This document shows positions 16,011 to 43,421 of a DNA stretch of 64,000 nt, in pieces (the stretch's first letter is position 1; each line of letters starts with the position of its first letter). Origin of the DNA: a virus; the IMG/VR virus record IMGVR_UViG_3300023283_000146, positions 1 through 64,000 of that record, one strand, 5' to 3'. The position numbers and the translations under genes were made by a program. The notes under the pieces are model-generated. The model worked only from the letters and a program-made list of their open reading frames with translations, had not been told where the DNA came from and ran no database searches.

Positions 16011-16024
16011 GCATCTGGTAGGGC

Positions 16025-17880: not shown

Positions 17881-18125
17881 GTAAGCATCCGGACCTAAAG
17901 CGGCAGCTCAACGAAGACCGCGCCCGGTACGTGGGCATGATACAGGCGGCCTGCGAGGTCCACGACCGCTTCGGCCCGTTCGGGCCTTTGAGCCGAAGGT
18001 TCGGCGTTGGTCGCGCCTATGAAGCGATCATAGAGTGCGCCAAAGAGTTGGCGCGACAGAACATGAGAACGCAGCAGCGACTGTATAGGGTGGAGCACGG
18101 CCGGCGCGAGGAGGACGACTCGTGA
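17877..18125 (+). CDS. hypothetical protein (82 aa)
   Basis: GTG overlapping the previous stop (GTGA), within track ORF 17802..18125. Confidence 0.5.
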   Translation: MSKHPDLKRQLNEDRARYVGMIQAACEVHDRFGPFGPLSRRFGVGRAYEAIIECAKELARQNMRTQQRLYRVEHGRREEDDS

Positions 18126-18439: not shown

Positions 18440-18849
18440 TGACCTCCACGCTTCATCCCTTACTCGTTCGCCATGCCCAGTCGCTTGGGCTCCAAGTCAT
18501 CGAGACTCCGTGGCCGGCATGGCACGGGCCCAACACGGTGTGCGCGGACTGCGATGAAGACCTGTCGCACGAGATCGCGCACTGGCTGCTCGCTCCCCCG
18601 AGCCGGAGAAGACGGCGATGGTTCGGGCTCGGGCACCCCAACAATGGCGGCAGGGGCGGCGGCGTCACGTGGTCCTTCGCGCTGGAGGAAGAGAAGCAGG
18701 CCAGCCTGCTCGGCATCCTTCTGGAGCGCTCAGCGAGTATAGACCCGATGCCTACATGGAGGGACCACGGGTGGCACTACAACATCTCGGGCGCTGCGGC
18801 GGTCCTGCGTGAGCTACGCAGGAAGGGCCTCTACCCAGTGACCTTATGA
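18439..18849 (+). CDS. hypothetical protein (136 aa) with an HEIAH motif
   Basis: Internal ATG of track ORF 18370..18849 (TAATGA junction). HExxH at DLSHEIAHWLL. Confidence 0.55.
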   Translation: MTSTLHPLLVRHAQSLGLQVIETPWPAWHGPNTVCADCDEDLSHEIAHWLLAPPSRRRRRWFGLGHPNNGGRGGGVTWSFALEEEKQASLLGILLERSASIDPMPTWRDHGWHYNISGAAAVLRELRRKGLYPVTL

Positions 18850-19184
18850 GCAAGCGCAAGTACCCCGAGAAACCGTGCACAGAGTGTCCGTACATCGGCA
18901 ACGTGCCGGGCTGGATCGGTGGGCACGACGATCCGCGAGAGTTCATCGACTTGGTGAATGCGGAACAGGAAATGCCGTGCCACTCGAAGGTCGACTACGG
19001 AGACGACGAGTGGCAAATGAAGCAGTGGAGCGCGCCACGCTGCGTTGGCCAGTTGATGATGGCAAACCGTATGTGCAAGCGGTTCCGCGACCCCGAAATC
19101 GCGGAACAACAGGAGAGAGTGGGCAAGGCCCCGCACACTCCACTTGAGTTGGTCGATCTGCACAGGAAGGGGACGATCAAGTGA
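18846..19184 (+). CDS. hypothetical Cys-containing protein (112 aa)
   Basis: ORF track; ATGA overlap. Confidence 0.55.
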   Translation: MSKRKYPEKPCTECPYIGNVPGWIGGHDDPREFIDLVNAEQEMPCHSKVDYGDDEWQMKQWSAPRCVGQLMMANRMCKRFRDPEIAEQQERVGKAPHTPLELVDLHRKGTIK

Positions 19185-19209
19185 CGATGAAGGTAGAGGA
19201 AACTGACCA

Positions 19210-19800
19210 ATGACTCAGCACGACCGCGACACATACGCCATCGCCCGAGCCCTCAACCTGCTCCCGCCCTCCCCCGAAGCCAGCGCAGCGCACGAAGCGC
19301 TGACGAGGCTGAGCGACGCGGTCCACTGGCTGGAGAGCGAACGGGACAAAGCGCGGCGCCTCCTTGCCGGTGCCGCTGAACGTGCGGAAGAGGCGTTGTC
19401 TGAGGCTGGACTCGACAGCGCGCAGGCCGAGGGCGATCTCCGCTATTACGCGACCAGGCCTGCTGTGCGCGACGCGATTGGAGTGCTGGCCAAACACATC
19501 AGTCAGGATCGGGCCCAGATCGAGCAACTCCACTCCCGCCCCTGCCCATACGTCCGTGGTGAAGAGGGCGAGACGCAGTGGTGCGGGCTCGCTGAGGACG
19601 TCGTAGCGAAGAATCACTTTCGGATCACGGACCTCCAGGATGAGGTCAAGCGACTCCGCCATGCCCTGGCGTACTACGCCGACAGAAGCCAGTACGAGTA
19701 CCTTACGTGGTACGGCGTCGAAGGCCAGCAGATCTGCAACCCGCCCGTGCTCAGCGACCGAGGCGCAGTCGCGCAGCGCGCCCTGGGAGAACCCGAGTGA
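19210..19800 (+). CDS. hypothetical protein (196 aa)
   Basis: ORF track. Confidence 0.6.
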   Translation: MTQHDRDTYAIARALNLLPPSPEASAAHEALTRLSDAVHWLESERDKARRLLAGAAERAEEALSEAGLDSAQAEGDLRYYATRPAVRDAIGVLAKHISQDRAQIEQLHSRPCPYVRGEEGETQWCGLAEDVVAKNHFRITDLQDEVKRLRHALAYYADRSQYEYLTWYGVEGQQICNPPVLSDRGAVAQRALGEPE

Positions 19801-20114
19801 ACGAAGACCGCAAGCTCGACCGCCACCAGCGACGTGAAGCCGACAACCTGCTTGAGCAGGTCATCAAGGACCCTGAGGCAGCAGCTCATGAGATCGTGTG
19901 GCTGCGAGCCGCACTTGCCGAGCGGGGGTGGCATCCAATCGAGACGGCGCCGGACGAAGAAGAGACCTTCCTCGTACTCTGCGACGGCTCACCCTTCCTG
20001 GTGGACCGCATTGCTGGCAGGTGGTTTCTCGGAGGACCCGAAGAGGTAGAGGTGCACCCCACTCACTGGATGCCTATTCTCGATCCGCCCCTTCGCAAGC
20101 CAGAAGCTGAGTAA
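19797..20114 (+). CDS. hypothetical protein (105 aa), DUF551-like C-terminus
   Basis: GTG overlapping the previous stop, within track ORF 19707..20114. GWHPIETAPDEEETFLVL resembles the DUF551 pattern as I recall it. Confidence 0.5.
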   Translation: MNEDRKLDRHQRREADNLLEQVIKDPEAAAHEIVWLRAALAERGWHPIETAPDEEETFLVLCDGSPFLVDRIAGRWFLGGPEEVEVHPTHWMPILDPPLRKPEAE

Positions 20115-23932: not shown

Positions 23933-24136
23933 TTACAGTTCGCTTACACGTCGTAGTATTTCATCGATCTTAGTCCGCTGGGCAGGAGTCAAGCGACGAC
24001 CTGATTCCACCCAACGGTCCACACTGTCGGCAAAGCCCATTTCCCACTGTGTGAGACCTTCTTCAACACCACACAGCTTTTGGGTGAGCTTTCGATCTTC
24101 ACGTATTTGCGCCTCTACTGAATCTCGTTCATCCAT
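23933..24136 (-). CDS. hypothetical protein (67 aa)
   Basis: ORF track. Confidence 0.45.
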   Translation of the reverse strand: MDERDSVEAQIREDRKLTQKLCGVEEGLTQWEMGFADSVDRWVESGRRLTPAQRTKIDEILRRVSEL

Positions 24137-25188
24137 TCCATCACCGAAGTGGCGTTGGGAGCACCTTGGCCAGGCGTGTTGGTGTAACGGTATTTGAAAT
24201 CATCCCAAACGCCAGGCCAAAGCTCATCAAACCGATCTATGAACAGCAGCCCGTGTCCTGCATCATGAAGGGTTGCGAACGGCGGCTCTTCATCCGGGTC
24301 CTTGGTGCTGTAGTGAAGCCAGAGCGGCGGCGGTACCACAGCCTCTTCGCCATGGTTCTCTAGGAAATCTGCTGCTCCCGCCTCAGTGAGAGTGCTGATA
24401 GCAACAGCATCTTTGAGGGAAACCCCTGGCTCGAAATGTTGCCAAACCGAACCAAAGGGGAGATCAACACCAAACCAGTGAGTGATGGTGTTGATAAGAA
24501 TGAGGGCGTCAGGTTTCTCAACGCTTGGGATACTCGCCCTTACAGCATTGTTCAAGTTGGCAATAGAACCGGCTGATTGTCCTATCGCAACAATGGTGGT
24601 GTCCGGACCAATCCGGTACATGTCACGATTCTCACGCACATGCCGGTACGCAAGACGCAGGTCACCCTCTGGTGATTGTGGGTGCTTCTGTTCTGGGGCT
24701 AGGCCGTAGCCGACCCCACCCAAGAACACAGATTCGTTTTGCAGCAGAGACCACCAAGGGTCAAAGGCGTGGTTGGGCAAGGTGGGTGATCCGCCAGAAG
24801 TAAACCCGCCACCAGAAGCGTAAAGCAGCAAAAAGTCAGGGTGGCCTGTGAACGACACGCGACGCCGCATTGAAATCAACTGCCACTCTTCCGGTCCATA
24901 GCGGACACGCTTACTGAGAATGTCTTCGTCTTCGCTACTTTCTACTGCCTCCCCAGGAACCAGGTTTGGAAGAAGGCTAGGCATCATCAAGGCGCTGGTC
25001 ACAGCAAGGGCCAGCACGAGCAAGGGAAGACGGTGGATGTACTGCATGAGGAGATTCATCAGTTTATGTTTCATGAGCCCACCAGAAGATAGTGGGCCAA
25101 ACGCAACCCTAGCATTATCAACACCATGTCGCGTAAGATCCCCGTAAGAAGACACAGCAGGTGTCGCCTTTTTGAATACATCACTCAA
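24115..25188 (-). CDS. alpha/beta-hydrolase (esterase/lipase-like) with an N-terminal membrane or signal segment
   Basis: ORF track. Nucleophile elbow GQSAG (VAIGQSAGSIANL), SGGGF oxyanion-like motif, hydrophobic RLPLLVLALAVTSALMM. Confidence 0.65.
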   Translation of the reverse strand: MSDVFKKATPAVSSYGDLTRHGVDNARVAFGPLSSGGLMKHKLMNLLMQYIHRLPLLVLALAVTSALMMPSLLPNLVPGEAVESSEDEDILSKRVRYGPEEWQLISMRRRVSFTGHPDFLLLYASGGGFTSGGSPTLPNHAFDPWWSLLQNESVFLGGVGYGLAPEQKHPQSPEGDLRLAYRHVRENRDMYRIGPDTTIVAIGQSAGSIANLNNAVRASIPSVEKPDALILINTITHWFGVDLPFGSVWQHFEPGVSLKDAVAISTLTEAGAADFLENHGEEAVVPPPLWLHYSTKDPDEEPPFATLHDAGHGLLFIDRFDELWPGVWDDFKYRYTNTPGQGAPNATSVMEWMNEIQ

Positions 25189-27581
25189 AAAGGAACAGCC
25201 GGCGGGTTGTAGAGCTCAGGATCGCTCCAGTCATAAGGCCCACCGAACTCCTGGTCCCAATGCCTACGGCACACTTCCAGGGTGGGCAGGAGATAAATGC
25301 GTGGCCGGTTCACAGTCTTCAAGCTTCCGTCTTCCTGCACCACTTCGACTGTACCTGCGTATTGCCCACGGTGACGGTGCTTAGGTGGAAACACTCTGCT
25401 CAGGAACTTACCCAAGCGCGTGCTGTTGCTTCGTGCGTTGTTCTGCCAGACACGTCGGTAGCTTGCGTAGTCATAAACCAGACGAGAAGCGAACACGAAC
25501 TCAGGCCAACTTTCGCCTTCAAAGACTTCACCTTGAACCAACTTACTGAACCACCACTCCTCTTCTGGGTTGAATGATAAGATCATTTGATCTTGTAGGG
25601 CTTGGGTTCGAGGCATGGTTCGTACGTCAAAGCCTTTCAGGTCAATATTCATCAGGTGGTGCATTAGCGCTTCATAGCCGCCGTTGTCCATTTGGCGCTG
25701 CACTTTGCCGAAATATTCAGTGTTCTGTTTTTGATCTTCACTTACATCCAACACAAAGAACCTACGCTCATCAAATCCTGCAGGCACAACCCAATCACTG
25801 TTCGAAGCCATGATCAAATGAACATAGTTAGGTGCCGCCTCAGCATCAACACCCTTCAACTCGACAGTAATGTTTTCTTCCGTAACCAGCATCTTGAGCA
25901 CACTTTCATGACGCCGGTCTCCTGCGTAAAATGCTTCATCAGCAAACAGAAGCACACAATCACGTAAGTGCGCATTGAAGTTTCCTACCAAGTGCTTGGG
26001 GTCACTGATATGCATATAGTGGCGACCAAACAAGCGCATGAAGTTACGGGCAAACACACCTTTTCCAGTGCCTTGCCTTCCTCGTAACACGACAGCCACA
26101 TGCCCAGGGCTGTCTGGGTGTTGGATAGCATTAGCCATCCAACGGATCAAATAGTCGAAGTGTTCTTCGTTACTTTGACAGATGTTTTGCTTGATGTGTT
26201 CTAGGTACAGGCTGCAGTCGCCTGGCTCAGGCTCATATGGATAGCCTTGCCACAGGTTGTAGCTGAGCTCAACTTCCTTTCCTGGAACGAACACAATCGT
26301 GTCGTATTGGCGCCTGCGGCTATGGTGAACCCACCAATGCCCCAGTGGCACCTGAACCACTTTTCCTTTCGGCCCGGCATATTCAATGTTGCGATGGCAG
26401 TAACGATTACGAAAGTCAGCAAAAGACTGAAAAGTCACTCTTGAACGATTCAGTGCCGGATCATGCTCTTCACTAATGATCCGGCATCGGCCCCCCACGC
26501 TTTCAATCACAGCGTGCTTGTCATTCAGTTCTGACAGTGAGGGGTCTACAGCATGGTCTCTGGCACGCCTAACCTGTCGCGCAGCATACCGCTGGGCACG
26601 GCCACCATAGTCATACACCGAGTCACTGATTCGATAGCGTTTGTCAGTGATCAGCGAAAAGATCGTATCGTCATCAACTTCTGAGCGAACCAGTTCACAA
26701 CAAACCCAGAACAACCACTCACTACGCGAAGGGTGCTTAGACGGATCTTCTGGATCCTTACCTTCACGAATAGCTGCTTTCACATTGTCCGGCACCGCCC
26801 GGGGCAGCTCATCTAGCTCTACCTGACGAGCTGTCGGAATAGCTGTCGCAGTGCCATTGCGACTTGCGGAGCTCGGCGCCTGCTCGCCCAGAGGGCGAGC
26901 CTGGGCGAATGAGCTGAGGCTGTAGGCTCGGTCTTCATGCGCCTCGACCAGCTGGGCCAAGGCAGGCTTACGACCCTTCTTCCGCTTCTTTTCGTTGGGC
27001 CAGTTGATGCTACCTGGCAGGCGCATGATCCTGTCCACATTATGACAAGGATCAGCGCCAAAACACGCTTCTAGTTCTCGATTATAGCGTTCTGCTTCTT
27101 CAGCTAGCTTTTCTTGCCCATCAAGTCGAATGGGCTTCTTTAGTTTCCAGAAGCCTTGGTAACCACCGCCAGAGAAAACAAGGCAAGTGGGCGGTGGGAT
27201 GTTCTTTGGGGTTTCTTGAAAGAGTGTGAGGATGCGCGCTTGTTCTTGTTTGATAGCTTCGAGACGCTCTTCCTCAGTTTCAAGGTCTTCACTAATCTGG
27301 GGGTCAACATCAACATGCAGCCATGCCATGGCTGCTATGTCGACTTTCAAGGGTTTCTTACGTAGCTTACGAAGAACAGGGTTGACGGAGAAGTAGAGGT
27401 TGTGCTCTTGCCCCTTCTTCTCCAGCCAACCCTGTGCTTGTTGTTCCTGGTCTGGCGAGAATGTGCGTGTTTCAATCCCGCCTGTTTCAGGGTGGATTGC
27501 GGTCAGAACCCAGAAGCCTTTATGCGCCCACCATTTCAGGAAATCAAGTGAGCGCGCATAGTCCGGCCGCGGCGGGCTCAC
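25185..27581 (-). CDS. primase-helicase (RepB-like primase N-terminus plus D5/P4-type P-loop helicase C-terminus)
   Basis: 798 aa. MRLPGSINWP primase-like motif, Walker A VVLRGRQGTGKGVF, Walker B-like LLFADEA. Confidence 0.8.
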   Translation of the reverse strand: MSPPRPDYARSLDFLKWWAHKGFWVLTAIHPETGGIETRTFSPDQEQQAQGWLEKKGQEHNLYFSVNPVLRKLRKKPLKVDIAAMAWLHVDVDPQISEDLETEEERLEAIKQEQARILTLFQETPKNIPPPTCLVFSGGGYQGFWKLKKPIRLDGQEKLAEEAERYNRELEACFGADPCHNVDRIMRLPGSINWPNEKKRKKGRKPALAQLVEAHEDRAYSLSSFAQARPLGEQAPSSASRNGTATAIPTARQVELDELPRAVPDNVKAAIREGKDPEDPSKHPSRSEWLFWVCCELVRSEVDDDTIFSLITDKRYRISDSVYDYGGRAQRYAARQVRRARDHAVDPSLSELNDKHAVIESVGGRCRIISEEHDPALNRSRVTFQSFADFRNRYCHRNIEYAGPKGKVVQVPLGHWWVHHSRRRQYDTIVFVPGKEVELSYNLWQGYPYEPEPGDCSLYLEHIKQNICQSNEEHFDYLIRWMANAIQHPDSPGHVAVVLRGRQGTGKGVFARNFMRLFGRHYMHISDPKHLVGNFNAHLRDCVLLFADEAFYAGDRRHESVLKMLVTEENITVELKGVDAEAAPNYVHLIMASNSDWVVPAGFDERRFFVLDVSEDQKQNTEYFGKVQRQMDNGGYEALMHHLMNIDLKGFDVRTMPRTQALQDQMILSFNPEEEWWFSKLVQGEVFEGESWPEFVFASRLVYDYASYRRVWQNNARSNSTRLGKFLSRVFPPKHRHRGQYAGTVEVVQEDGSLKTVNRPRIYLLPTLEVCRRHWDQEFGGPYDWSDPELYNPPAVPF

Positions 27582-28317: not shown

Positions 28318-30234
28318 TTATCCCACCTTCTCTATTTCACCCCATGAAGGCCCATGTTCTAGGTCAACCTTGTGTGGGACACTGCATTCAACACCCTTGC
28401 GCATGATTTCTGCTAGTTCTTCACTTTGTTTTCGATCTGAAACACTCAGGTCTAGCTCATCATGCACTTGAAGCTGAACTTTGAAACCTGCTTCTTCTGC
28501 TAAGATGAGCGCCATCTTTGTTTGGTCGCCAGAAGAACCCTGCACAGCACGATTGAGCGCCTTGTGCGTCCAATCATGTCGCGGGTTGCCGTGTTCATCG
28601 GGCGGCAGAGGAGGGAAATGGCACATCCGTCCTAGAATCGTTCGAATGCTGCCTGTGTTGTTGGCCTTTTCTTTTGCGATGTCGGCGATTTGCCTCGCCC
28701 AGGGCACGCGCCTGTGAAACTGTTCCAGGATGGCTTGTCCTTTAGGACCAGCGATTTCGACCATCTTTTGCCTTCGCTTAGAAAACACCCATTTGGTTTC
28801 TAGTCCTGCCTGGTGGCAGAGCTTAGCTTCACCCATCCCGTAGATTAGTCCCAGGAAGATGATCTTTGCAAAGCTGCGCTTCAATCCAGTGAGCTCAACC
28901 ATCATGCTGTGGAAGTCAGAGTCAGGGTCAGAGCGGTACCGCTCCGCTGCTTCTCTGGCGCCAGAGCAATCGGCTTGTTCTGCATAATGCACAGACCAAC
29001 GTGGTTCTTGTTGAGAATAGTCTGCACACAGCCACTCGCAACCTTCTTCAGGAACGTAGATAGATCGCCAAGGCTTACCAATCTCAGGGTCCTTATCAGG
29101 CGATATCTGTTGTTGTAGGTTTGGGTCTACACAACTCATCCTGCCCCAACGGGCGCCTTGCTCAGAATCATCTTCATCGCTTTTGGGGCCACGTAACTGA
29201 TTGAAGGTGCAATGAATACGACCATTGATTGAATGACGAATAATCGAAGCTGCAAAGGTCGTACGCAGCTTATTGAACTTCCGGGCTCGGATGATCAACT
29301 TTGCGACATCGTGGTCAATCGTCTCGAGCCAAAGCCCTCTGATAGAAGGCTTGTTTGTCTTCGGCGTGGTGGGTGGCTCAATGCCAATCTGGCGCAACGG
29401 CTGGGCTAACGCTTCAGCTTTCCAGACATCATCAGGTGTGAGCGAAACATCTGTCAACCGTCTGATTTCTGCAAGTTTTTCTCTTTCCTTTTGAAGTGCC
29501 CAAGACTGCACTTCTTCTAGACGCTTGAAATCAATGCGCACACCACGGCGCCGCATCTGAACTGTAATCGGCAAAAGCCGTGATTCTAAGTCAACAATCT
29601 GTTGTAGGTTCTTCTGTTCTATGTCAGCTTCTTGCTGTCGCAAAATCTGTAGCGGCAACAGAACATCCTGTTCACCGTAAGGGCCGACATACTCAGGGGG
29701 AAGGCGCCACAAGTCACGCTTCGGGTTCAGACCATATGCCTTGGCAGCTTCCTGAAGCAAGGTTTGGTCTTTGCCAGGAATCCCACGCCGCTCAGCGATG
29801 GCGTCCATGCTGTAGCTGTCTTGTAAGTCATCAATCAACGGCTCGTTGAGTTGGATGTCGCAACAACGAGCTTGATGAAACCGAACACCCTCTTCTTCAA
29901 GATAGTCAAGGTCATACGAGAGATTGGCCCCAACCAACTCACCCTTGAAGACCTTCGCTTGATCACGAAGATAGCTCAGAACTACATCTTCATCAAGATT
30001 GATGCCCGTGGCATGCCGTATTGGAAGATAGCAGCAAGGCCCGTCTTCAATGGCAAATGACACGCCCACCACATAGCAGCCCGGCCGCCGCACCCCAGGC
30101 CCTAGCTCGCGCAGCTGCTCATCGCGTGTCTCTACGTCCACTGCTACTCGTCGGGCCCCTGCCCAGGAGGGGAGCCTGGCTGGGTTGGGGAAGGTCCAGG
30201 AAGAGCTCGGCTGGAAGAGAGGAAGCTGGGTCAT
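28318..30234 (-). CDS. family-A DNA polymerase with an N-terminal 3'-5' exonuclease-like region
   Basis: 638 aa. Motif A CADYSQQEPR, motif B KIIFLGLIYGMG, motif C LQVHDELDL. Confidence 0.9.
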   Translation of the reverse strand: MTQLPLFQPSSSWTFPNPARLPSWAGARRVAVDVETRDEQLRELGPGVRRPGCYVVGVSFAIEDGPCCYLPIRHATGINLDEDVVLSYLRDQAKVFKGELVGANLSYDLDYLEEEGVRFHQARCCDIQLNEPLIDDLQDSYSMDAIAERRGIPGKDQTLLQEAAKAYGLNPKRDLWRLPPEYVGPYGEQDVLLPLQILRQQEADIEQKNLQQIVDLESRLLPITVQMRRRGVRIDFKRLEEVQSWALQKEREKLAEIRRLTDVSLTPDDVWKAEALAQPLRQIGIEPPTTPKTNKPSIRGLWLETIDHDVAKLIIRARKFNKLRTTFAASIIRHSINGRIHCTFNQLRGPKSDEDDSEQGARWGRMSCVDPNLQQQISPDKDPEIGKPWRSIYVPEEGCEWLCADYSQQEPRWSVHYAEQADCSGAREAAERYRSDPDSDFHSMMVELTGLKRSFAKIIFLGLIYGMGEAKLCHQAGLETKWVFSKRRQKMVEIAGPKGQAILEQFHRRVPWARQIADIAKEKANNTGSIRTILGRMCHFPPLPPDEHGNPRHDWTHKALNRAVQGSSGDQTKMALILAEEAGFKVQLQVHDELDLSVSDRKQSEELAEIMRKGVECSVPHKVDLEHGPSWGEIEKVG

Positions 30235-30239: not shown

Positions 30240-30620
30240 TCACTGAAAGGTAGTGGCGGTTGACTCTGTGCCGTCCTCATGTTGGTCTAGCTTGCAGCGG
30301 ACCTCTGCCTCAATAAGTAGCAAGTAGGACCGAAGATCAGCTATGTCGTCAAGCAGGTTGTCGCTGTTCTGTCCTGTGTGCAGAGCATCGCTGAAAGCTG
30401 CCTCAAGAATGTCCCAGCGATCGACCTGGAGATTCGCTTGTGTGATCTGATTTTCGATACGGTCCCACTTGCGCGCGAGCATCATGAATGCGCCAACCCC
30501 ACCGCGCTTCTTCCAGGAAGAGCCATACTGTTCTTCTTTGTTTCGAAGACGTTGCACATCCGCATCTACGACAGGCTGGATGTAGTCCATGTGATTGTAG
30601 GTTTTATCTTGGGAGCTCAT
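30240..30620 (-). CDS. all-alpha NTP pyrophosphohydrolase-like protein (MazG/DUF1599-like)
   Basis: Track ORF 30240..30722 trimmed to ATG 30620 (or 30590). EEQYGSSWKKRGGVGAFMMLARKWDRIENQ and DDIADLRSYLLL resemble that family as I recall it. Confidence 0.5.
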   Translation of the reverse strand: MSSQDKTYNHMDYIQPVVDADVQRLRNKEEQYGSSWKKRGGVGAFMMLARKWDRIENQITQANLQVDRWDILEAAFSDALHTGQNSDNLLDDIADLRSYLLLIEAEVRCKLDQHEDGTESTATTFQ

Positions 30621-31116
30621 CAGACAGCCTCCTGTGCTTGTCTTGAACGATCTTGTTGTAAAGCCAACCACACTGGTGGGGAACACGATGACTGTTTCTG
30701 GCAAACCAGGATTCAACCGCATCTTTCATCTTGGAAACCATGGTGTTGCCAAAGGCTTCTTGTTCTCGGCACCACAAGAACAACTCCAGCTTGTCAACAG
30801 CGTCAAGCCAGTCTTGTTCATTATCAGTTAGCCCAAGACAGGGTCTGCAGGGGAGACCTGCATACACAAACTGCTCAACTCGCTTGAGTCCTTGAGCTAT
30901 AGATGCATCACCCCACTTTACAGGTGCTGGGATATCGCCTGTCCAACGTTCAGGCACATCATGCCATAGAACAGAGCAGATCAGCCTGCGTGTGGGGTCT
31001 GGGTGTAGAACCAGCAGAAGACTTAGCGCATCATATGAGTGCTTACCGACAGAATAGTCTCCCACCTTGGGCAGCACATGGCATCGCTGAACATGCCCAC
31101 CCTCCCGAACTGTCAT
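30604..31116 (-). CDS. HD-domain phosphohydrolase (5'-deoxynucleotidase-like)
   Basis: Track ORF 30604..31161 trimmed to ATG 31116. Carries H...HD signature residues (VGKHSYDAL..., VLWHDVPE). Confidence 0.65.
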   Translation of the reverse strand: MTVREGGHVQRCHVLPKVGDYSVGKHSYDALSLLLVLHPDPTRRLICSVLWHDVPERWTGDIPAPVKWGDASIAQGLKRVEQFVYAGLPCRPCLGLTDNEQDWLDAVDKLELFLWCREQEAFGNTMVSKMKDAVESWFARNSHRVPHQCGWLYNKIVQDKHRRLSDELPR

Positions 31117-31127
31117 GATTTTTCGGA

Positions 31128-32177
31128 TTACTTCTTCTGCTGCTTTCTCTTCTCTTCCCACTTCTTTGCTCTCCTGTCAAGCCATTGATACGCGGCCAGG
31201 AACCAGTCTTGACTGCCACAGGCGCGAAGCTCACGTTGAGCTGTTGTGAATCGAACCTCAGACTTTGATTTGAAGGCTCGCCATGCACGAAGGTACGGGA
31301 CTGCAACAGTCCGAAAAAACGTATCTACGAACTCAGGCTCAGCGATCCTACCTTCTGCCCAGTCAAAGAACTGGTTCAGTTCACGCAGCCAAGATCCTGG
31401 GCGCAGACCTACTAGTGGCACTCTGTTTACACCAGGGTCTTCGTAAGGTGAAACAGGCCCTGGGGAAGGCGGTTCACCGGCTTTTTGCGCTAGTGTGTTT
31501 ACCATGTCCTGGTGGGGTTCAAGGTAGACATGTGCGTTGAAGGTGGTGTGCCAGTAGCGTCCCGGGGGTCGCATGATCAATGCAGCCATGTATTCCAGCA
31601 AGAAGCTGAAGTGCACAACGTTGGCGCCATACTTACCCCAAATGAGGTCGTTGGAACGATTGCACACCATCATGTCTAGCTTCCCATCTGCAGCAACCTG
31701 GAAGTAGGCGTGCGTGTTGCAAGGTAAGTCACGAGAATCAGCGTTTCCTAGGTCAGCCTTGGGGTCCCACATCGCTAACACTTGGCGACGGCACTGTGGG
31801 TTGCGTTTCAGCGCGAAAGCAATCGACCCCAGTTGGTTCACGTCAAAATGGCTCTTCCACCGATAGCCATACGCCCCATGGAAAACTTCTCCATCATCTG
31901 AATACTTGCTGATGTTGGAGTTGAACGCTGACACAAAGGCCACATCTCTCCGTCCAGCGAGCATCCAGAGGGCTTCGAAAAGATGGAAGAACGGATTCGC
32001 ATCTCGCTCTGGCCAGAACACCACGCGCTCTACAGGTGCGCCATAGCATGTGGTCAATGGCGCTGGCATTTGAAGCACAACGCCGTTACGTGTTTCCCTC
32101 TTCTCACCATATTTCAAGATGAATCGGCATGCTTCCGGGAGCGCTAGGTGGGCATTACGTGCGTTGATTGTGATCAT
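31128..32177 (-). CDS. thymidylate-synthase-family pyrimidine hydroxymethylase (probably dUMP-specific)
   Basis: 349 aa. DLPCNTHAYFQV carries the catalytic Cys (compare ThyA LPPCH..FQF). NRSNDLIWGKYGANVV parallels ThyA QRSCDVFLGLPFNIA. Confidence 0.8.
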   Translation of the reverse strand: MITINARNAHLALPEACRFILKYGEKRETRNGVVLQMPAPLTTCYGAPVERVVFWPERDANPFFHLFEALWMLAGRRDVAFVSAFNSNISKYSDDGEVFHGAYGYRWKSHFDVNQLGSIAFALKRNPQCRRQVLAMWDPKADLGNADSRDLPCNTHAYFQVAADGKLDMMVCNRSNDLIWGKYGANVVHFSFLLEYMAALIMRPPGRYWHTTFNAHVYLEPHQDMVNTLAQKAGEPPSPGPVSPYEDPGVNRVPLVGLRPGSWLRELNQFFDWAEGRIAEPEFVDTFFRTVAVPYLRAWRAFKSKSEVRFTTAQRELRACGSQDWFLAAYQWLDRRAKKWEEKRKQQKK

Positions 32178-32180
32178 TGT

Positions 32181-33050
32181 TCAACCCTTGACTATGTATC
32201 GACGTTTGAGTCGCTCACCTGCTTGAGCTCTGCGGTATTTGTCGTATTCACACAACACATGTTCAACTTCACGCATTTCCCACTGCGGCCAGTGCCTAGG
32301 CCAGTGGTGTTGTTCACGGCTCATGTTCAACAGCTCCCTCATAACACCCAGCATTGCTGTTTGCTGGGGTCGGCTGTTGTAGTTCCAGACGTCCGGCTTG
32401 TCTGCGTAAACCCACCCCAACCCACGCGCACAACCTGGGCCAGCAGAAGCCCATGAGTTGGTATCTTCAGCATGCTCCAAATAAGCTGTGTGCCGCAAAT
32501 CCGTCACTACTTCATACGCCATGAACCTGCCCAGGTAGGGGAAGCCCATAAGTCGGCGGTGGGTGTCTTCTAGGGATTCTTGCTTACCACCCAGCTCTTC
32601 TGGGAAATGAGCGTGAAAGTAAGTGATGCAATCTAGAATGCCCTTGAGCTTACTTTTGCCATCCGGTGATTTGATCACATAGGCGCCAGTAAACAAAGGG
32701 CAGTTGTTTTGTTGCTTGTGTCTTGTGAGCGCAGCTTCAGCTCTGGCTTCTGACCAGTGCTGCCAATCCAGAAGTAGTGGCTTCAAGACAGCACCTGTTT
32801 CAATACGGTTGAACCACCGAAAAGCAACCGTAGCGAACACCACACCTAGCTGGCTCTTGAGGGGCTCGCGAAGATTTTCCCGAAACCACACAGTGGTGGT
32901 ATCATCTTCGCGAAACACATTACAGAAGCGGAACTCCTGTAACACAGGATCAGTAGTCCAAGGCCAGGGCTCTGTTTGTTTCTTGAGGAAGATTTTGTAC
33001 CGCTCTCTTGCGAAAGCGAAGAAGTCCTCCTTCTTCTTCAGGTTTAGCAC
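32181..33050 (-). CDS. alpha-glutamyl/putrescinyl-thymine pyrophosphorylase-like (aGPT-Pplase) DNA base-modifying enzyme, candidate
   Basis: 289 aa. The N-terminal PWPWTTDPVLQEFRFCNVFREDDTTT pattern and its placement between the ThyA-like gene and the P-loop kinase fit the family as I recall it. Needs an HMM search. Confidence 0.55.
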   Translation of the reverse strand: MLNLKKKEDFFAFARERYKIFLKKQTEPWPWTTDPVLQEFRFCNVFREDDTTTVWFRENLREPLKSQLGVVFATVAFRWFNRIETGAVLKPLLLDWQHWSEARAEAALTRHKQQNNCPLFTGAYVIKSPDGKSKLKGILDCITYFHAHFPEELGGKQESLEDTHRRLMGFPYLGRFMAYEVVTDLRHTAYLEHAEDTNSWASAGPGCARGLGWVYADKPDVWNYNSRPQQTAMLGVMRELLNMSREQHHWPRHWPQWEMREVEHVLCEYDKYRRAQAGERLKRRYIVKG

Positions 33051-33616
33051 AACTGCAGTGTCTCCTCAATCACTTGTCGTGCTCCTTCGCGATTAGTGAG
33101 AAAAGTTGCCAGGCCAGCCTCTGTGAACTTCTCGTGGTTCTTCAGAGCAAGCTTGTGTTTTGTCTCTGTGTTTCGAGGGTTCACTGGTCCGAGCTCTTTG
33201 CCCAGGCGGGCGGCGCGGCGTTGGCGGCGCTCGTTTACGGATGCCAGGCAGGTTTCGATCGATGTGTTCAGCGTCACGACGATCAACGGGAATAGACCGT
33301 CTAGTTCGATAGTCCGGTTGCGGTCTGAGTTGACGAGTAGACCTTCGAATAACACATCTCGACCCATTTCATGGTTGGTGCCCACGAGCTCAAAGATGCG
33401 ATCGAGCTTAGGGATCGTGTCGCACCCACCACAGTCCGTCTCGTAGTGCCCCAGAACGGCGAGCGGGCGCCCCCTATCACGGTAACAGACGTAGCCCAGT
33501 GGGCGTCGTCGGCCTTCCTCCTTGAAAGCGATGCGGCGATCGTACAGGCTCATAACCTCACGAACCAGGGTGGACTTCCCACTACCGCTGGTGCCTCTGA
33601 TATTGATGATCATCAA
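33044..33616 (-). CDS. P-loop kinase, candidate 5-hydroxymethyl-dU DNA kinase
   Basis: 190 aa. Walker A at the extreme N-terminus (IINIRGTSGSGKSTL). Call rests on gene context. Confidence 0.6.
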   Translation of the reverse strand: MMIINIRGTSGSGKSTLVREVMSLYDRRIAFKEEGRRRPLGYVCYRDRGRPLAVLGHYETDCGGCDTIPKLDRIFELVGTNHEMGRDVLFEGLLVNSDRNRTIELDGLFPLIVVTLNTSIETCLASVNERRQRRAARLGKELGPVNPRNTETKHKLALKNHEKFTEAGLATFLTNREGARQVIEETLQLC

Positions 33617-33846
33617 CTGGGTTTCTGGTCATGGTTTGAGCCGCGCACCCGATTCATCAGTGTCTCTTGGTCGTATCGCAGCCTAGCTGCAGCAGCGATG
33701 AGTGCGTGACCAGCCTGAGTCAGAGCACAAGACAAGCACGGTGAACATTGTAGCTCATCTATGTTCTTCACCCTCACAACCATGCAGCCACAACTCATCC
33801 TCTCAACAATCTCTTCAACGTCCTCTAGGAACGGTCGCTCGTCCAT
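33613..33846 (-). CDS. hypothetical Cys-rich protein (77 aa)
   Basis: ORF track. CGC...CSPCLSC; ATGA overlap. Confidence 0.5.
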   Translation of the reverse strand: MDERPFLEDVEEIVERMSCGCMVVRVKNIDELQCSPCLSCALTQAGHALIAAAARLRYDQETLMNRVRGSNHDQKPS

Positions 33847-34250
33847 ACCAGCTTCACTCCTTCACCCTTCAGTGCTTCACCTTCTTCTGTAAACCTGTGT
33901 TTCCGGTAGAAGGAGCGTGCTTCCTCATTATCTTTCATGACATTCAGCACGATTCTGCCATGGGGGGTCTGGTTCATCAAATCTTGAAGAAGCAGAGTCC
34001 CCAGCCCTTTTCTCTTGTGGTCCGGATCTATCGCGATGAAGTAGAGCGTTGTCTCCGGCTGCCGAACCTTATGCCTCACACAGGTGAATCCGAGCAGTTT
34101 GCCTCCCCCCACCAGCTTACGAATCCACCCCTTTTCATATGCAGATTCTCCACTGAACATGTGGTTAGAGAAGTCACGTGTGTATCTTGATGACCGCGCT
34201 AGTTTCACTAACGCATCATGATCACGACGGGAAGCCTGGACCACCTTCAT
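33825..34250 (-). CDS. GNAT-family acetyltransferase
   Basis: Track ORF trimmed to the ATG overlapping the upstream stop (ATGA). Acetyl-CoA motif A in IAIDPDHKRKGLGTLLLQDLM. Confidence 0.75.
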   Translation of the reverse strand: MKVVQASRRDHDALVKLARSSRYTRDFSNHMFSGESAYEKGWIRKLVGGGKLLGFTCVRHKVRQPETTLYFIAIDPDHKRKGLGTLLLQDLMNQTPHGRIVLNVMKDNEEARSFYRKHRFTEEGEALKGEGVKLVWTSDRS

Positions 34251-35089
34251 GCGTAATGCTTCTGCAACATGCCTGCTGCCCACCCTGCAGCGAGCGTTCC
34301 ATTCTTAGAGCCGCCTGTCACAGCCCACAGATTACGCCCGAACTCTTCCAGAAGACAAGGTGCCTTTTGTTTTGTGACAGGCCGAATGCCCAGGAGTCGG
34401 AGTGGGTGGCTTTGCGCTCCTAGTGCCTTCTGCACACGGAGTTCAGATTCTTTCTGACGTTCAAGGGTCCAGTTTTCTGGCTTGATTGCCGTGCCATCAC
34501 CAGCCCAGACCACATGCTCCCCTTCTGGGCAAGCGACAATCTGTTTGTAGGGTGCCCAGGGCTGGATGAAGGGTTCTGTTCTCACCCCTGTGTAGCGAAA
34601 GGCAATGCCCTTCTTTCCGCTGACCTGCCCAAGAAGCTGTTCGATCAGGTAGGGGGTCCAGTAACCTGCAGCAACGATGATGACATCGTATTCATGGGCG
34701 TGTGAGTGATTTGCAGTAGCCAACCACCCAGTTGAAACACGCGTGACCCTTTCGTATCTAACTTCGATCATTCGACCAGAATGGTGGCACACACGAGCTA
34801 TGTCAACTTTGTGGGGCGGTACACGGAACACCTTAGCTGTGCGCCTAGAAGGCTTCACTCTGAACGTGAGCTCTTCCAAGCCATACAGGGTATCGAGAAC
34901 CCCTAAGCCTAGGGAGTAGTCCTCCTTGTTCATCTTGGAGAACCAACTCGGTTTCATCAGGAACCCACTCGCTCGGGTTCCTGCTTCTGGCTGTTTGTCA
35001 TCATAGACAACAACCTTGTTGCCCAGGCGGGACATGGTCTGAGCAATGGTGGTGCCAAAAATACCGGCGCCAATAATCGCTACATGCAT
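34247..35089 (-). CDS. FAD-dependent oxidoreductase (DAO/glycine-oxidase-like)
   Basis: Track ORF trimmed to MHVAIIGAGIFGTTIA... (GxGxxG dinucleotide fold at the N-terminus). The start overlaps the upstream stop by 1 nt. Confidence 0.75.
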   Translation of the reverse strand: MHVAIIGAGIFGTTIAQTMSRLGNKVVVYDDKQPEAGTRASGFLMKPSWFSKMNKEDYSLGLGVLDTLYGLEELTFRVKPSRRTAKVFRVPPHKVDIARVCHHSGRMIEVRYERVTRVSTGWLATANHSHAHEYDVIIVAAGYWTPYLIEQLLGQVSGKKGIAFRYTGVRTEPFIQPWAPYKQIVACPEGEHVVWAGDGTAIKPENWTLERQKESELRVQKALGAQSHPLRLLGIRPVTKQKAPCLLEEFGRNLWAVTGGSKNGTLAAGWAAGMLQKHYA

Positions 35090-35292
35090 CAGGGGTTGTC
35101 TTTCCCACGCTTTTTCTCTCGAGCTTGCTGCATGGTCACCTGCATTAGCGCACAAGTCATGGCTAAGGCTTCCTCACGGGTTACGTTTTCTTCACCGCAA
35201 AATGCACGAAAGATGCTAGCGTATGTCGGTACAACATGCTCTTGGATCTTTGCCAGGGCTTGATCAAGCCTGTGGATGTCTATCGGATCCAT
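35089..35292 (-). CDS. hypothetical protein (67 aa)
   Basis: Track ORF 35089..35355 trimmed to the ATG overlapping the upstream stop. Confidence 0.45.
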   Translation of the reverse strand: MDPIDIHRLDQALAKIQEHVVPTYASIFRAFCGEENVTREEALAMTCALMQVTMQQAREKKRGKDNP

Positions 35293-36152
35293 TATGCCTC
35301 CTGGGTTGGCAATGATTCTAGAAACGTGTCGGCCACACCACTTCGCGCACACCAAGGTTCTACGCCCTTTAGAATCTCAGTTGTGTCGTTGAAGAAAGGG
35401 TAGTGCCCATTCATGTGAGACTTCCACTTACAGAGCACTGTCTCTACTTCCTGGAGCCCAATGGGGCGGTCTCGTAGCGGGGGTGCCTGATAACCCCAGT
35501 TGTTGAAATAGTCTGCTAGATACGTGACTACTTCATCAAGCACACGATTGAGGTTTCGTGGCTTAGCGGTTTCTGGCAGTTTGTGCTTTGCTCTCCAGAG
35601 CATCACAGCTGCCTTCACGGGGTCCTTGAACATGAAAACATGCGCTTCATCAAATGTTACTGGGTAGTGCAGCACACGCTCAACCATGTCAGCAACCTTG
35701 AATGCAATCCAGTTGCCAAATAGGTAGTGCTCAGTGACACGTTGCATCACAGCCCCGCAAGTCTGAACCTCGGGCTTCCCAGCCATGTGCCGAACAGCTT
35801 GCTCAGGTTGAGCGTACCGAGATTGCATAGCTTCAACCATGCGAATGCCTTGAGCGCCTCTCGCGTGTCGTCGTTCATGGCCACGAGGCCATCGTGTGCC
35901 ATGCGGCGTTGGCTTCTCATTACGTGCTGCGGTATGCGCCCAGTGCCAGAAGTCTTCACCCTTGAACTCTGAAAGCCAGCTGGCCACACCACAGTCGTAG
36001 AAAAACCAATATGCTAACAGCCAACGCTCAGTTACATCTTGCGGCAGGTCAGCTTTCACTAAGCCAACGTACACAGGATCTAGGTCACCAGAAGAGATTA
36101 GGTGCTCTCCGAATGATTCAATGTCACAGCGCCTGTAGTTTCTCTTCCCCAT
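35292..36152 (-). CDS. second aGPT-Pplase-like / amino-acid:DNA transferase-like protein, candidate
   Basis: 286 aa. All-alpha-looking sequence (DLDPVYVGL..., RWLLAYWFFYDCG). Call rests mostly on context within the hypermodification cassette; needs an HMM search. Confidence 0.45.
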   Translation of the reverse strand: MGKRNYRRCDIESFGEHLISSGDLDPVYVGLVKADLPQDVTERWLLAYWFFYDCGVASWLSEFKGEDFWHWAHTAARNEKPTPHGTRWPRGHERRHARGAQGIRMVEAMQSRYAQPEQAVRHMAGKPEVQTCGAVMQRVTEHYLFGNWIAFKVADMVERVLHYPVTFDEAHVFMFKDPVKAAVMLWRAKHKLPETAKPRNLNRVLDEVVTYLADYFNNWGYQAPPLRDRPIGLQEVETVLCKWKSHMNGHYPFFNDTTEILKGVEPWCARSGVADTFLESLPTQEA

Positions 36153-36153: not shown

Positions 36154-36477
36154 TCAAGCGTTATACCAATAGCGCTCTGCCGCTGCCGCTTGTTCTAGAG
36201 TCTGCTTCCCTCGTCTGGTCAATCTTGCTTGGTCATGTGCTGCGTCATAGTCCAGCAACTTTTCACGACAGGCTTTTATCACTGCTATGACGAAATATCG
36301 CGCCCATCTCCCTTTCGTGTGCTTCCATCCCCGCAGTCGGCGTATGGGTGAACGCACTGAAGGGGCTGCATCGATTAGGCGTAGCGCCTTCAATACGTCT
36401 GGTCCAACTTTCAACTCTCGCCCAGGGGTGGTTGGTGCTGCACCGTCTTGGTGAGGGGTCTCAGAGTTTGAGTTCAT
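36154..36477 (-). CDS. hypothetical protein (107 aa)
   Basis: ORF track. Confidence 0.55.
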   Translation of the reverse strand: MNSNSETPHQDGAAPTTPGRELKVGPDVLKALRLIDAAPSVRSPIRRLRGWKHTKGRWARYFVIAVIKACREKLLDYDAAHDQARLTRRGKQTLEQAAAAERYWYNA

Positions 36478-36800
36478 GACCGAGTTTCCAGGTCTTCTGG
36501 TTCCACTTCTATTAGCTTCCCGATCTGCTCCCAGCTACCGCACTCTCGGTCGATCGGCTCGAACACCTCTTGCACGAGCGTAGCCGCACCCGAGACATCG
36601 AGATGTGCAGACGCATGCTGTGCGAATACAAGCGCTTTCTCCCTGCTACGGAACGCCCGGTCGTTGCCCTCGAAGCACTCTCCGATGAAGCGATCCTCGC
36701 AGCTCTCGTCGCACTTGTGCCTGTGCGTCGTCCAGTGAACGAGCCAGCGGGTTGCACCTGCAAACGCTGGCGGCCCACCGCCTATGTCGAACAATCTCAT
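36474..36800 (-). CDS. hypothetical protein (108 aa)
   Basis: ORF track; ATGA overlap. Confidence 0.55.
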   Translation of the reverse strand: MRLFDIGGGPPAFAGATRWLVHWTTHRHKCDESCEDRFIGECFEGNDRAFRSREKALVFAQHASAHLDVSGAATLVQEVFEPIDRECGSWEQIGKLIEVEPEDLETRS

Positions 36801-36803
36801 CGG

Positions 36804-37064
36804 TCATCTGCGATGGCGGAAAGCCTGGTCGAGCAGGCCGTCGACGGTCGTGTCCATCATCGCGGCCAGGCGGCGCAGGTAGATCGGATGCGGTAGCGAG
36901 CGGCCGAGCTCCCACTGGCTCACCGTCTTTTTATATCCGCCGAGCAGCCGGGCGACCTCCGACTGGGCCAGACCTTGATTATGGCGCCACCGCCGGATGC
37001 GGTGGCCCAGCCGCTTGGCCGCGGTAAACGACTCGGTCGAGTCTCGCTGGTTGAGGCGCGCCAC
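36804..37064 (-). CDS. XRE-family helix-turn-helix protein (86 aa)
   Basis: ORF track (GTG start). IRRWRHNQGLAQSEVARLLGGYKKTVSQWELGRSLP is a typical HTH. Confidence 0.7.
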   Translation of the reverse strand: MARLNQRDSTESFTAAKRLGHRIRRWRHNQGLAQSEVARLLGGYKKTVSQWELGRSLPHPIYLRRLAAMMDTTVDGLLDQAFRHRR

Positions 37065-37212
37065 TACCAGTGCACCTGGATGTAGACGCGCTCAGCGGCG
37101 CCTCTGCCGAGGGGGAAGGTGGTCATGGTCGATCTGTGTGTTTCGTGTTTTGTGGCGTGACGAGCGGCGGTTTATCGCGCCGTTGACGGCTCACCGCCTA
37201 TGTCTGTCAGCC

Positions 37213-37452
37213 TCATCGGTCGAGTCTGCTTCGTTTAGGGATCGGCCAGCCACCGAACCGTTTCAGGTTACCTCTGTCACGACAGTCGGTCAGCGACTTG
37301 CCGCACGACGCGATGGGGCCCTCATAACCGCACTCACTGTATTTGAACGTGAACGGACACGGGGCCATGCGCGCGCCGCAGCGATCGCATTCGAACACAC
37401 CGCCGCGCAGCACCCACAGGTGGCCGTTGTGAGAGCAGACCAGCACAGTCAC
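37213..37452 (-). CDS. hypothetical Cys-rich protein (79 aa)
   Basis: ORF track. CDRCG and other Cys clusters. Confidence 0.5.
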   Translation of the reverse strand: MTVLVCSHNGHLWVLRGGVFECDRCGARMAPCPFTFKYSECGYEGPIASCGKSLTDCRDRGNLKRFGGWPIPKRSRLDR

Positions 37453-38105
37453 ACCTGCCTTTCTGCGCGGTAGGCATCGAGGAGGACATCAGTAGCTATC
37501 ATCAACAACTCCAAGGAATGCCCACCAGAGCAACTGGCGACTCGGCAAACTTTGTGGAGCGCGTTCCCACAGTGCCTGGCTGCGGCGACCGTAGCGTGCA
37601 CGTCACCAACTAAGGTGTCACCAGCTTCACTAGACCGGACAGCAGCGGAACCGTGCCATGCAGCGGCTGCTGCATAGCCGGCAGCAACCTCACACCGCCA
37701 CGCAGCTCCCTGCCCATCGGACTGGACGGGGACGCTTGCCGCCGTGCGAAGCCCCCAGGGCACGATGCGGCGCATCGTGCCCTGGGCAAGGGCCCGTACC
37801 CAACGGGTGCGATCCGTACCACCAGTCTTCGCCATTGCAATGGCTGGAAAGAACAGCGCCCGAGCACGCCTGTCCATAGATGGCCATGACTCATCACTAA
37901 GCCACAAGCCGTAGATGCGGTCAGGCCACGCGACACACTGAGGGACCTCCGACAACTCGCCAGTGGTGGCAAGACTGATGGCCTGCAGCAGGCAGACAGG
38001 CCCCTGATCATTTGGCGCTGGACCCTTGCGAAGACCTTTCATGAAGACTGAACACAATCGGTCTTCATTTATGTGTTTGCTCAGTTGCTGTCTTTCACAC
38101 CTCAA
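37449..38105 (-). CDS. hypothetical protein (218 aa)
   Basis: ORF track. Confidence 0.55.
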   Translation of the reverse strand: MRCERQQLSKHINEDRLCSVFMKGLRKGPAPNDQGPVCLLQAISLATTGELSEVPQCVAWPDRIYGLWLSDESWPSMDRRARALFFPAIAMAKTGGTDRTRWVRALAQGTMRRIVPWGLRTAASVPVQSDGQGAAWRCEVAAGYAAAAAWHGSAAVRSSEAGDTLVGDVHATVAAARHCGNALHKVCRVASCSGGHSLELLMIATDVLLDAYRAERQV

Positions 38106-43146: not shown

Positions 43147-43421
43147 GACTCGACCTACTCGACCTAGCGCTTTTGCTGTGGCTGAGGTCGTTCGTCGTAA
43201 ACCCTTCTAGCCACAGCGCCCGCCTGACCTACTCGACCTACTCGACCTTCTAGAGAGGAGAGAGATCTAGTGTGGTGGCACATCTCGCGACATCGCTCGC
43301 CTGGGCTGACTCGCAGGGGTCGAGTAGAGTCGAGCAGCCCTTCTGGGCACAGGAGTTACGACCGTTGGAAGGTCGTTCCAACGTCATGCGAGGTCGAGTC
43401 AGGTCGAGTCAGGTCGTTCGG
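43147..43421. repeat. composite repeat element B (twin of element A)
   Basis: gactcgacctactcgacc, gaggtcgttcg, cctactcgacctactcgacc + gagaggagagagatc, ggtcgagtagagtcgagcag, aggagttacg, aggtcgagtcaggtcgagtcaggtcgttcgg. Same order as in 5989-6270. Confidence 0.85.

Follow-up and report, generated by a model that had tools for sequence, protein, structure and literature searches.

The first 64,000 nucleotides (nt) of the IMG/VR virus record IMGVR_UViG_3300023283_000146, referred to here as the window, carry on the minus strand between positions 30240 and 36152 ten consecutive open reading frames (ORFs) that had been read, from the sequence alone, as a cassette for the hypermodification of thymidine in phage DNA. 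In the direction of transcription these encode an amino-acid:DNA transferase (AADT, also written ADDT; 35292-36152), a 67-amino-acid orphan ORF that we call s67 (35089-35292), a predicted flavin adenine dinucleotide (FAD)-dependent N-alpha-glycinylthymidine oxidase/lyase (NGTO, gp47-like; 34247-35089), a GNAT protein that is a predicted 5-aminomethyl-dU (5-NmdU) N-acetyltransferase (gp48-like; 33825-34250), a 77-amino-acid CxC...CxxC mini-protein that we call s77 (33613-33846), a predicted P-loop 5-hydroxymethyl-dU (5-hmdU) DNA kinase (5-HMUDK; 33044-33613), a kinase-associated helical paralogue (32181-33050), a ThyA-family enzyme (31128-32177), an HD phosphohydrolase (30604-31161) and a four-helix protein resembling Nmad1 (30240-30620). 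The gene for a family A DNA polymerase (PolA; 28318-30234, PF00476 at 3.6e-42) follows and is the last of the colinear block. All of the ORFs named in the original prediction are indeed present on this strand; their start codons were refined using homologue lengths and overlaps, and the refined coordinates are the ones given above. From the transferase through PolA the gaps at successive junctions are -1, -1, -4, -22, -1, -7, +3, -34, -17 and +5 nt. Overlaps of 1-4 nt, which had been said to occur at most of the junctions, are found at only four of the ten, but the block is still tightly packed, as had been claimed. This tight translational coupling suggests that the cassette genes are expressed as a single operon.

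A tblastn search with the FAD enzyme matched 20 phage records, with ZC01, Ab18, Ab19, Ab20 and PaMx11 of the Abidjanvirus group at the top. The PaMx11 genes are arranged as gp46 (the AADT, annotated as hypothetical), gp47 (FAD oxidoreductase), gp48 (acetyltransferase), gp49 (a P-loop protein mis-annotated as 'terminase small subunit'), gp50 (hypothetical), gp51 (thymidylate synthase), gp52 (HD), gp53, gp54 and gp55 (DNA polymerase). Pairwise comparison by BLASTP revealed that eight consecutive genes of the window are orthologous to, and colinear with, gp46-gp52 plus the polymerase. The transferase is 49% identical to gp46 over its full length, and the corresponding values are 40% for the FAD enzyme and gp47, 49% for the GNAT protein and gp48, 48% for the P-loop protein and gp49, 46% for the helical protein and gp50, 51% for the ThyA-like enzyme and gp51, and 46% for the HD protein and gp52; the window polymerase matches the beginning of gp55 at 56% identity. 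The synteny continues upstream to a DUF3489 protein (31% identical to gp45) and a Dda-like helicase (50% identical to gp42). When the comparison with phages was made at the level of DNA, the similarity was restricted to short stretches of 65-76% identity, and there is therefore no close cultured relative. Orthology and gene order, together with the conservation of catalytic and specificity residues presented below, are matters of direct observation.

The chemistry encoded by clusters of this type has been described (Lee et al. 2021, PMC8989533). In DNA, 5-hmdU is monophosphorylated by 5-HMUDK, and the phosphate is then displaced by glycine through the action of a clade-2 aGPT-Pplase, the AADT, to yield N-alpha-glycinylthymidine (N-alpha-GlyT or GlyT, 315 u). 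PaMx11 gp47 converts GlyT to 5-NmdU (257 u), and gp48 acetylates this product to 5-acetylaminomethyl-dU (5-AcNmdU, 299 u). The pathway given in the original prediction agrees with this account, with the single correction that the product of the kinase is a monophosphate, 5-PmdU. Two further studies bear on the residues involved. The functional residues of gp46 and gp47 have been defined by crystal structures (Wen et al. 2024, PMC11472151), and mutagenesis of the YuA enzyme has established that the pocket residues K248 and Y257 specify glycine as the donor (Li et al. 2026, PMC13458397).

The transferase of the window matches PF18724 ('Amino acid:DNA transferase') in Pfam at 9e-28 and is 52% identical to M6 gp51 and to YuA gp10. 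It belongs to a class also called aGPT-Pplase2 or PUGT. Alignment shows that it keeps 20 of the 22 structure-defined residues of gp46. Among these are E237, T238 and C241, equivalent to gp46 E243, T244 and C247, of which Cys247 is the proposed nucleophile and Glu243 and Thr244 are metal ligands, as well as D25, W148 and K152, equivalent to the glycine contacts D24, W146 and K150. The wedge residue Phe173 of gp46 and its Arg94/His95 pair are also kept. The YuA donor determinants, for which the numbering was verified, correspond to K242 and Y251 of the window, inside the invariant motif ETxLCKWKSHxxGHY. The pattern of retained residues points to a predicted glycine:5-PmdU transferase as the product of 35292-36152.

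The FAD enzyme falls in the DAO family (6e-16, Pfam), and its best NCBIfam models are those of the glycine oxidase ThiO and of MnmC1, the same as reported for gp47. In the alignment, 11 of the 13 residues with which gp47 contacts DNA and substrate are kept; W71, Y203, Q205, R258 and K284 correspond to gp47 W51, Y180, Q182, R242 and K268, and the two changed contacts are R181, replaced by K, and Y244, replaced by V. Arg242 of gp47 is the proposed binder of the glycyl carboxylate (PMC11472151). The GNAT gene lies just downstream and overlaps the FAD gene by 4 nt (ATGA). Its product matches Acetyltransf_1 (3e-12, Pfam) and, in NCBIfam, generic models, for example RimI-like. A KRKGLG stretch within it is presumably the acetyl-CoA-binding motif of GNATs.

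The P-loop protein has the Walker A motif GTSGSGKST. Besides its similarity to gp49 it shares 32% identity (E 3e-9) with M6 gp54, which was biochemically assayed; it is a predicted kinase, and its match to the relevant Pfam family is sub-threshold. The neighboring protein encoded at 32181-33050 matches PF18723 (HMUDK_hel, '5-hmdU DNA kinase, helical domain') at 2e-49 in Pfam and is 33% identical to M6 gp55 (E 3e-44). A reading of the kinase and helical genes as a frameshifted fusion was considered and rejected; in PaMx11 and M6 too these are separate, adjacent genes.

The ThyA-like ORF matches PF00303 (Thymidylat_synt) at 3e-20 and phrog_5131 at 2e-112. The two strings that had been singled out in it are present: DLPCNTHAYFQV, which holds the catalytic Cys153, and GANVV, which holds Asn186. 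R174/S175 and H216/Y218 are present as well. The best solved relative of this enzyme is the CMP 5-hydroxymethylase MilA. In a HMMER alignment Asn186 coincides with the Asn of the thymidylate synthase motif 'PFNIASY', which we take to be ThyA Asn177, and with an Asp of MilA. Because Asn186 is aligned with the thymidylate synthase Asn, the earlier argument for uracil specificity holds at the level of the alignment, and the protein is a predicted dUMP hydroxymethylase that would supply 5-hmdU, although hydroxymethylase and methylase chemistry are not told apart by sequence alone. The HD ORF is assigned to the YfbR-like 5'-deoxynucleotidase family (PF12917 at 6.5e-9), and the NCBIfam 5'-deoxynucleotidase model matches at 5e-7, below its cutoff. 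Family membership was thus confirmed by profile searches for the transferase, the helical protein and the FAD, GNAT, ThyA-like and HD ORFs.

The last ORF before the polymerase had been described, as 30240-30722, as a MazG/DUF1599-like nucleoside triphosphate pyrophosphatase. Its likely product, from 30240-30620, is 126 amino acids long and identical to a called JGI protein. This protein had no match in Pfam (E<=5), in NCBIfam or in phmmer and profile searches of the PDB, and BLASTP revealed no similarity to PaMx11 gp53 or M6 gp61. Its family comprises at least 1616 clusters, which carry no Pfam annotation, and in six related metagenomic loci (L027, L035, L037, L045, L059 and L060) a homologue is found at this same place, with the HD or ThyA gene on one side and the polymerase gene on the other. 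An AlphaFold2 (AF2) model consists of four helices (pLDDT 85). With this model, Foldseek returned nothing below E 2.6 from the PDB, and from BFVD it returned repeated matches to phage proteins named 'Nucleotide modification associated domain 1' (Nmad1, which is PF07659/DUF1599), with a probability of 1.0, TM scores of 0.5-0.63 and E values of 4e-2 to 2. The predicted fold is thus consistent with the DUF1599-like part of the earlier description; the MazG or dUTPase type of match was not obtained, and any pyrophosphatase activity is putative.

These assignments lead to a pathway that would proceed as follows. The ThyA-family enzyme would convert dUMP to 5-hydroxymethyl-dUMP, while the HD hydrolase, and possibly the Nmad1-like protein too, would bias the nucleotide pools, and the phage family A polymerase would place 5-hmdU in DNA instead of T. 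Acting on the DNA polymer, the P-loop kinase would phosphorylate a fraction of the 5-hmdU residues to 5-PmdU. The transferase would flip the base out and attack C6 with Cys241, expelling the phosphate to leave an exocyclic methylene to which glycine would be added, so that GlyT is formed. The FAD oxidase would then oxidize the N-C-alpha bond with release of glyoxylate, giving 5-NmdU, and the GNAT protein would acetylate the amine to give 5-AcNmdU. The expected outcome is a genome in which T is partly replaced by a bulky base that would block host nucleases. As to the individual enzymatic activities, the identity of the final product and the fraction of T that is modified, the scheme is a prediction from sequence.

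As a whole, the eight-gene colinearity and the conservation of residues strongly support the proposal from which we started, that this is a thymidine hypermodification cassette, possibly like that of PaMx11. We conclude that the block is probably a complete operon of the PaMx11 type, carried by an uncultivated siphovirus. It is a further diverged example of an anti-restriction system that has already been described and not a new kind of system; what remains novel is the mini-protein linked to the kinase, the orphan ORF and the mosaic context of the genome.

Several points weigh against this conclusion. First, the identities to PaMx11 are only 40-51%, and a drift in substrate or acyl donor is therefore possible. 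Second, s67 and s77, which are absent from PaMx11, sit inside the operon without assigned roles. Third, the match of the kinase to the Pfam family HMUDK_HMUD1 (PF18748) is below threshold, at 15.7 bits against a cutoff of 27 (E 0.011). Fourth, the 5-AcNmdU of PaMx11 was reconstituted in vitro and was never measured in virion DNA (PMC8989533); we did not find a literature report of its native detection, and a 2025 preprint states 5-AcNmdU for Ab18 by citation only. Finally, there are many related loci in which an AADT and an FAD gene occur in the absence of a GNAT gene, which implies that the GNAT step is separable.

This last point is best seen in the distribution of tailoring genes among 54 metagenomic loci that contain relatives of the AADT, which fall into three groups. 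FAD plus GNAT, the PaMx11 type, is found in L003, L019 and L039, in addition to PaMx11 itself. FAD without GNAT is found in many loci (L009, L010, L021, L022, L025-L027, L041, L043, L045 and others). Roughly 20 loci have the M6 type, with genes for a pyridoxal phosphate (PLP) enzyme and a radical S-adenosylmethionine (SAM) enzyme. The distribution agrees with the combinatorial picture published in PMC8989533. Two other gene sets were noted. In the variant cluster of L042 (Ga0209633_10017996; 1419-3079), the AADT is followed in order by a 65-amino-acid ORF, a protein of about 300 amino acids with a GxGxxG-like motif and a 149-amino-acid Cys-containing protein, and a homologue of s77 stands directly before the kinase; no FAD or GNAT homologue was detected there at E<=1e-3, and this locus may make a different modification. 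L004 (IMGVR_UViG_3300028563_000011, 110 kb) encodes at 5992-12393 a gp47-like FAD enzyme, a 314-amino-acid protein, a radical-SAM-like protein of 398 amino acids, an AADT, a kinase and a helical paralogue, a combination that is not among the characterised pathways in the literature consulted for comparison.

The frequency of AADT plus FAD clusters that lack GNAT shows that 5-NmdU can be an end point, and one may ask whether the pathway of the window also ends there, or with some other acyl group, the GNAT protein using another acyl-CoA or acetylating not DNA but, for example, a small molecule or a protein of the host or the phage. The generic, RimI-like family matches would allow this, and structures or specificity residues of gp48 do not exist for comparison. 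The GNAT protein is, however, 49% identical to an enzyme that acetylates 5-NmdU in DNA in vitro (PMC8989533), its gene occupies the same position as gp48 with the ATGA overlap, and the AADT/FAD/GNAT triad recurs in the three loci of the first group. We therefore regard an end point other than 5-AcNmdU as unlikely.

A second question concerns the helical protein, which had been read as another transferase-like gene that left room for a different or additional adduct. The gene proves to be the orthologue of gp50 and gp55 and is thus already part of the reference clusters. In M6, GlyT is formed without gp55 when the reaction is reconstituted in lysate (PMC8989533). Since the PaMx11 and M6 clusters both contain this paralogue, its presence in the window is no evidence for an additional adduct, and its role is a question for the whole family and not a peculiarity of this phage. 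When the helical protein was compared with the transferase by hhalign, a weak match was obtained (E 0.0025, probability 12%) that places EVEHVLCEY on EVETVLCKW of the transferase and LGRFMAYEVVTD on LFGNWIAFKVADM. On this alignment the Glu and the Cys are retained and the glycine pocket is altered, W148 becoming F176, K152 becoming E180 and K242 becoming E268. Judged from these aligned positions, the helical gene is a true paralogue of the transferase. Because the Glu...Cys dyad is kept while the charge of the ligand pocket is reversed, the paralogue could use another nucleophile, or a hydride donor, on 5-PmdU. We give only a small chance to the extended version of this idea, in which the paralogue is an active second enzyme, as opposed to a passive helical domain, that may process 5-PmdU with a different nucleophile or hydride donor while s77 tunes the kinase. 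As an example of such an activity, thymine could be restored at sites that are not hypermodified.

The two small ORFs, neither of which is present in PaMx11 or M6, present different pictures. s67 begins with an ATG that is preceded by the Shine-Dalgarno sequence AGGAGG, it is translationally coupled at both ends by an overlap of 1 nt with each neighbor, and gene calling on an independent Logan contig predicted it as well. It had no tblastn match in 50,697 phage records (E<=1) or in 62 related loci, and no match in Pfam. For s77, tblastn against the phages returned nothing, and a word-indexed search of 5.8 billion sequences returned only s77 itself. When 1.84 billion representatives were searched exhaustively with HMMER, a single cluster of relatives emerged (P0002, E 7.7e-4), and two further homologues were found by position, in L003 (from IMG/VR) and L042. 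In all three contigs in which the position could be read (the window, L003 and L042), s77 lies directly upstream of the P-loop kinase, and this includes L042, where other genes stand in place of FAD and GNAT. The conserved pattern is C-x-C...C-x-x-C/H followed by a helix with A-G-x-x-L-x-A-A-A; C19, C21 and C37 are kept, and position 40 is C or H. An AF2 model of moderate quality (pLDDT 71) shows three short strands and a long helix, and no significant fold match was obtained with it. It is a reasonable guess that s77 is a metal-binding accessory protein tied to the kinase, and the spacing of the Cys and His residues would suit a zinc ribbon. Conservation of this motif and the position of the gene are the basis for supposing that s77 might bind metal as a partner of the kinase and influence the choice, or the number, of the 5-hmdU residues that become phosphorylated.

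The absence of both small ORFs from PaMx11 and M6 might be taken with the changed pocket of the helical protein to mean that this second aGPT-Pplase paralogue, or the small ORFs, or the two together, would put another adduct on the base, either in place of the predicted one or in addition to it, and that the end product is not that of PaMx11. That the paralogue keeps a Glu-x-x-x-Cys motif aligned to the essential Glu and Cys of the transferase, with W to F and two K to E replacements in the pocket, and that no function has been assigned to gp50/gp55 in the literature consulted, would fit such a scheme. Against it, the paralogue is not an addition at all, gp55 is dispensable for GlyT, the small ORFs have no enzyme-like features or family matches and the hhalign match is weak; a link between the small ORFs and the chemistry was not found. 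We consider this quite improbable, and prefer the PaMx11-type pathway as set out above. That the cassette is inactive, or serves ordinary nucleotide metabolism (a plain thymidylate synthase with unrelated neighbors) in a phage with unmodified DNA, is highly improbable. The only NCBIfam name for the ThyA homologue is thymidylate synthase, with a match well below the cutoff, which would favor such a reading; but all of the ORFs are intact and coupled, the catalytic residues are conserved, the DNA-acting families PF18724 and PF18723 are matched above threshold and chance would not be expected to produce synteny over eight genes with a cluster whose biochemistry has been characterised.

The remainder of the window places the cassette in its genomic setting. 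Proteins identical to those of the window occur in the Logan run SRR23862446. Genes for TerS, TerL and portal are at 2.1-5.7 kb and tail and head genes are at 43-64 kb, all on the minus strand, so that the genome is that of a siphovirus and is circularly permuted. The module for replication and nucleotides occupies 20-43 kb. A check of the 64,000-nt window (the record is 64,766 bp) for terminal repeats revealed no duplication of the ends. TerL (3538-5043) is closest to that of Shewanella phage S0112 (51%) and to those of Rhizobium phages, not to those of Pseudomonas phages. The structural module therefore differs in its affinities from the module for hypermodification and replication, and the genome is mosaic.

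Other features of the window were recorded in passing. Between the DUF3489 gene and the transferase, at 36154-38105, is a stretch of about 2 kb with a GC content of 0.60 that is absent from the equivalent place in L003 and PaMx11; it encodes an HTH_31 protein (36804-37064) and contains ORFs that are ambiguous on both strands. From 6000 to 20000 the GC content is mostly 0.59-0.65, with a dip to 0.52 at 14-16 kb, compared with about 0.52 in the rest of the genome. Genes in this block are mostly on the plus strand and without an assigned function, and only two of ten ORFs match PHROGs, both of them families of no assigned function. Dense iteron-like direct repeats are present at 6531-6709, with three copies of a unit of 38-nt period at 6563-6709, and at 9412-9807, where about eight copies of the 41-nt unit TTACGAAGATCTTACGTAAGACTTGAGTAAGATCGTGATTC (9412-9667) are followed by 23-nt repeats, ACCCTCCGACCAAAACACAAGTC (9670-9807). 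A replication origin or an array with a regulatory role is a possible reading of these repeats. A 117-nt direct repeat (73% identity; 5994-6110 and 43151-43267) is intergenic and lies upstream of the minus-strand operons for TerS and packaging and for helicase and replication, which may thus have a regulatory region in common. At the left end of the window, at 16-330, a 63-nt tandem repeat is present in about four copies, probably within a structural gene that continues beyond this end. In the replication module, an Abhydrolase_3 protein (24115-25188; 2e-6) is encoded immediately downstream of the gene for a RepB-primase/DUF5906 primase-helicase (25185-27581). A scan of 27.5-39 kb for promoters and terminators gave counts at or below the shuffle expectation, and a tRNA scan found none.

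These results extend the PaMx11-type FAD and acetyltransferase cluster to an uncultivated siphovirus with a packaging module unrelated to that of Abidjanvirus, and they support the view that the hypermodification and replication block travels as a module between phage lineages. If the pathway operates as predicted, the phage DNA should be resistant to many restriction enzymes, and its nanopore signal should be aberrant at T. The window also provides a second set of AADT, NGTO and GNAT enzymes, 40-50% diverged, for biochemistry or for enzyme-assisted sequencing, and the CxC...CxxC ORF and the PF18723 paralogue are minor leads on what determines where, and how extensively, the DNA is modified.

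It is instructive to compare the cassette with known systems. In the tRNA xm5U34 pathway (MnmEG, MnmC1), glycine is likewise attached to the C5 methylene of uracil and an FAD-dependent cleavage then leaves an aminomethyl group (PMC8989533), and the FAD enzyme of the window matches the MnmC1 model. In the window, however, the substrate would be DNA instead of tRNA, glycine would enter by displacement of a phosphate and not by the folate/FAD route, and the sequence similarity is confined to the FAD-binding region. The 5-NedU cluster of M6 and YuA (gp51-gp55) has in common with the window an AADT that is 52% identical and agrees in the glycine determinants, a kinase at 32% and a helical paralogue at 33%, and also the hydroxymethylase, the HD gene, the polymerase and the N-alpha-GlyT intermediate. 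The tailoring differs: in M6 a radical-SAM isomerase and a PLP decarboxylase act on GlyT, whereas the window has an FAD oxidase and a GNAT protein and no PLP or radical-SAM homologue.

PaMx11 (Abidjanvirus; PMC8989533, PMC11472151) has the same gene content and order from AADT to PolA, with 40-51% identity per protein, and the residues on which gp46 relies for catalysis and glycine specificity are conserved in the window, as are those with which gp47 contacts DNA and substrate. Unlike PaMx11, the window has s67 inserted between its AADT and FAD genes and s77 between its GNAT and kinase genes, and at the position of gp53/gp54 it has the Nmad1-like gene, with no similarity detectable by BLASTP. 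Between the Dda helicase and the cassette it lacks the ribonucleotide reductase genes and has instead the GC-rich stretch of about 2 kb (36.15-38.1 kb), and its structural and packaging module is not PaMx11-like, the best match of TerL being to phage S0112. The closest cluster found is that of L003 (IMGVR_UViG_3300025286_000287), a 15-kb fragment that differs from the window in having neither the 67-amino-acid ORF between AADT and FAD nor the GC-rich upstream insertion. Its AADT is 51% identical to that of the window, with 41% for the FAD enzyme, 56% for GNAT, 54% for the kinase and 49% for the helical paralogue, and it shares with the window a homologue of the 77-amino-acid CxC...CxxC ORF between GNAT and kinase.

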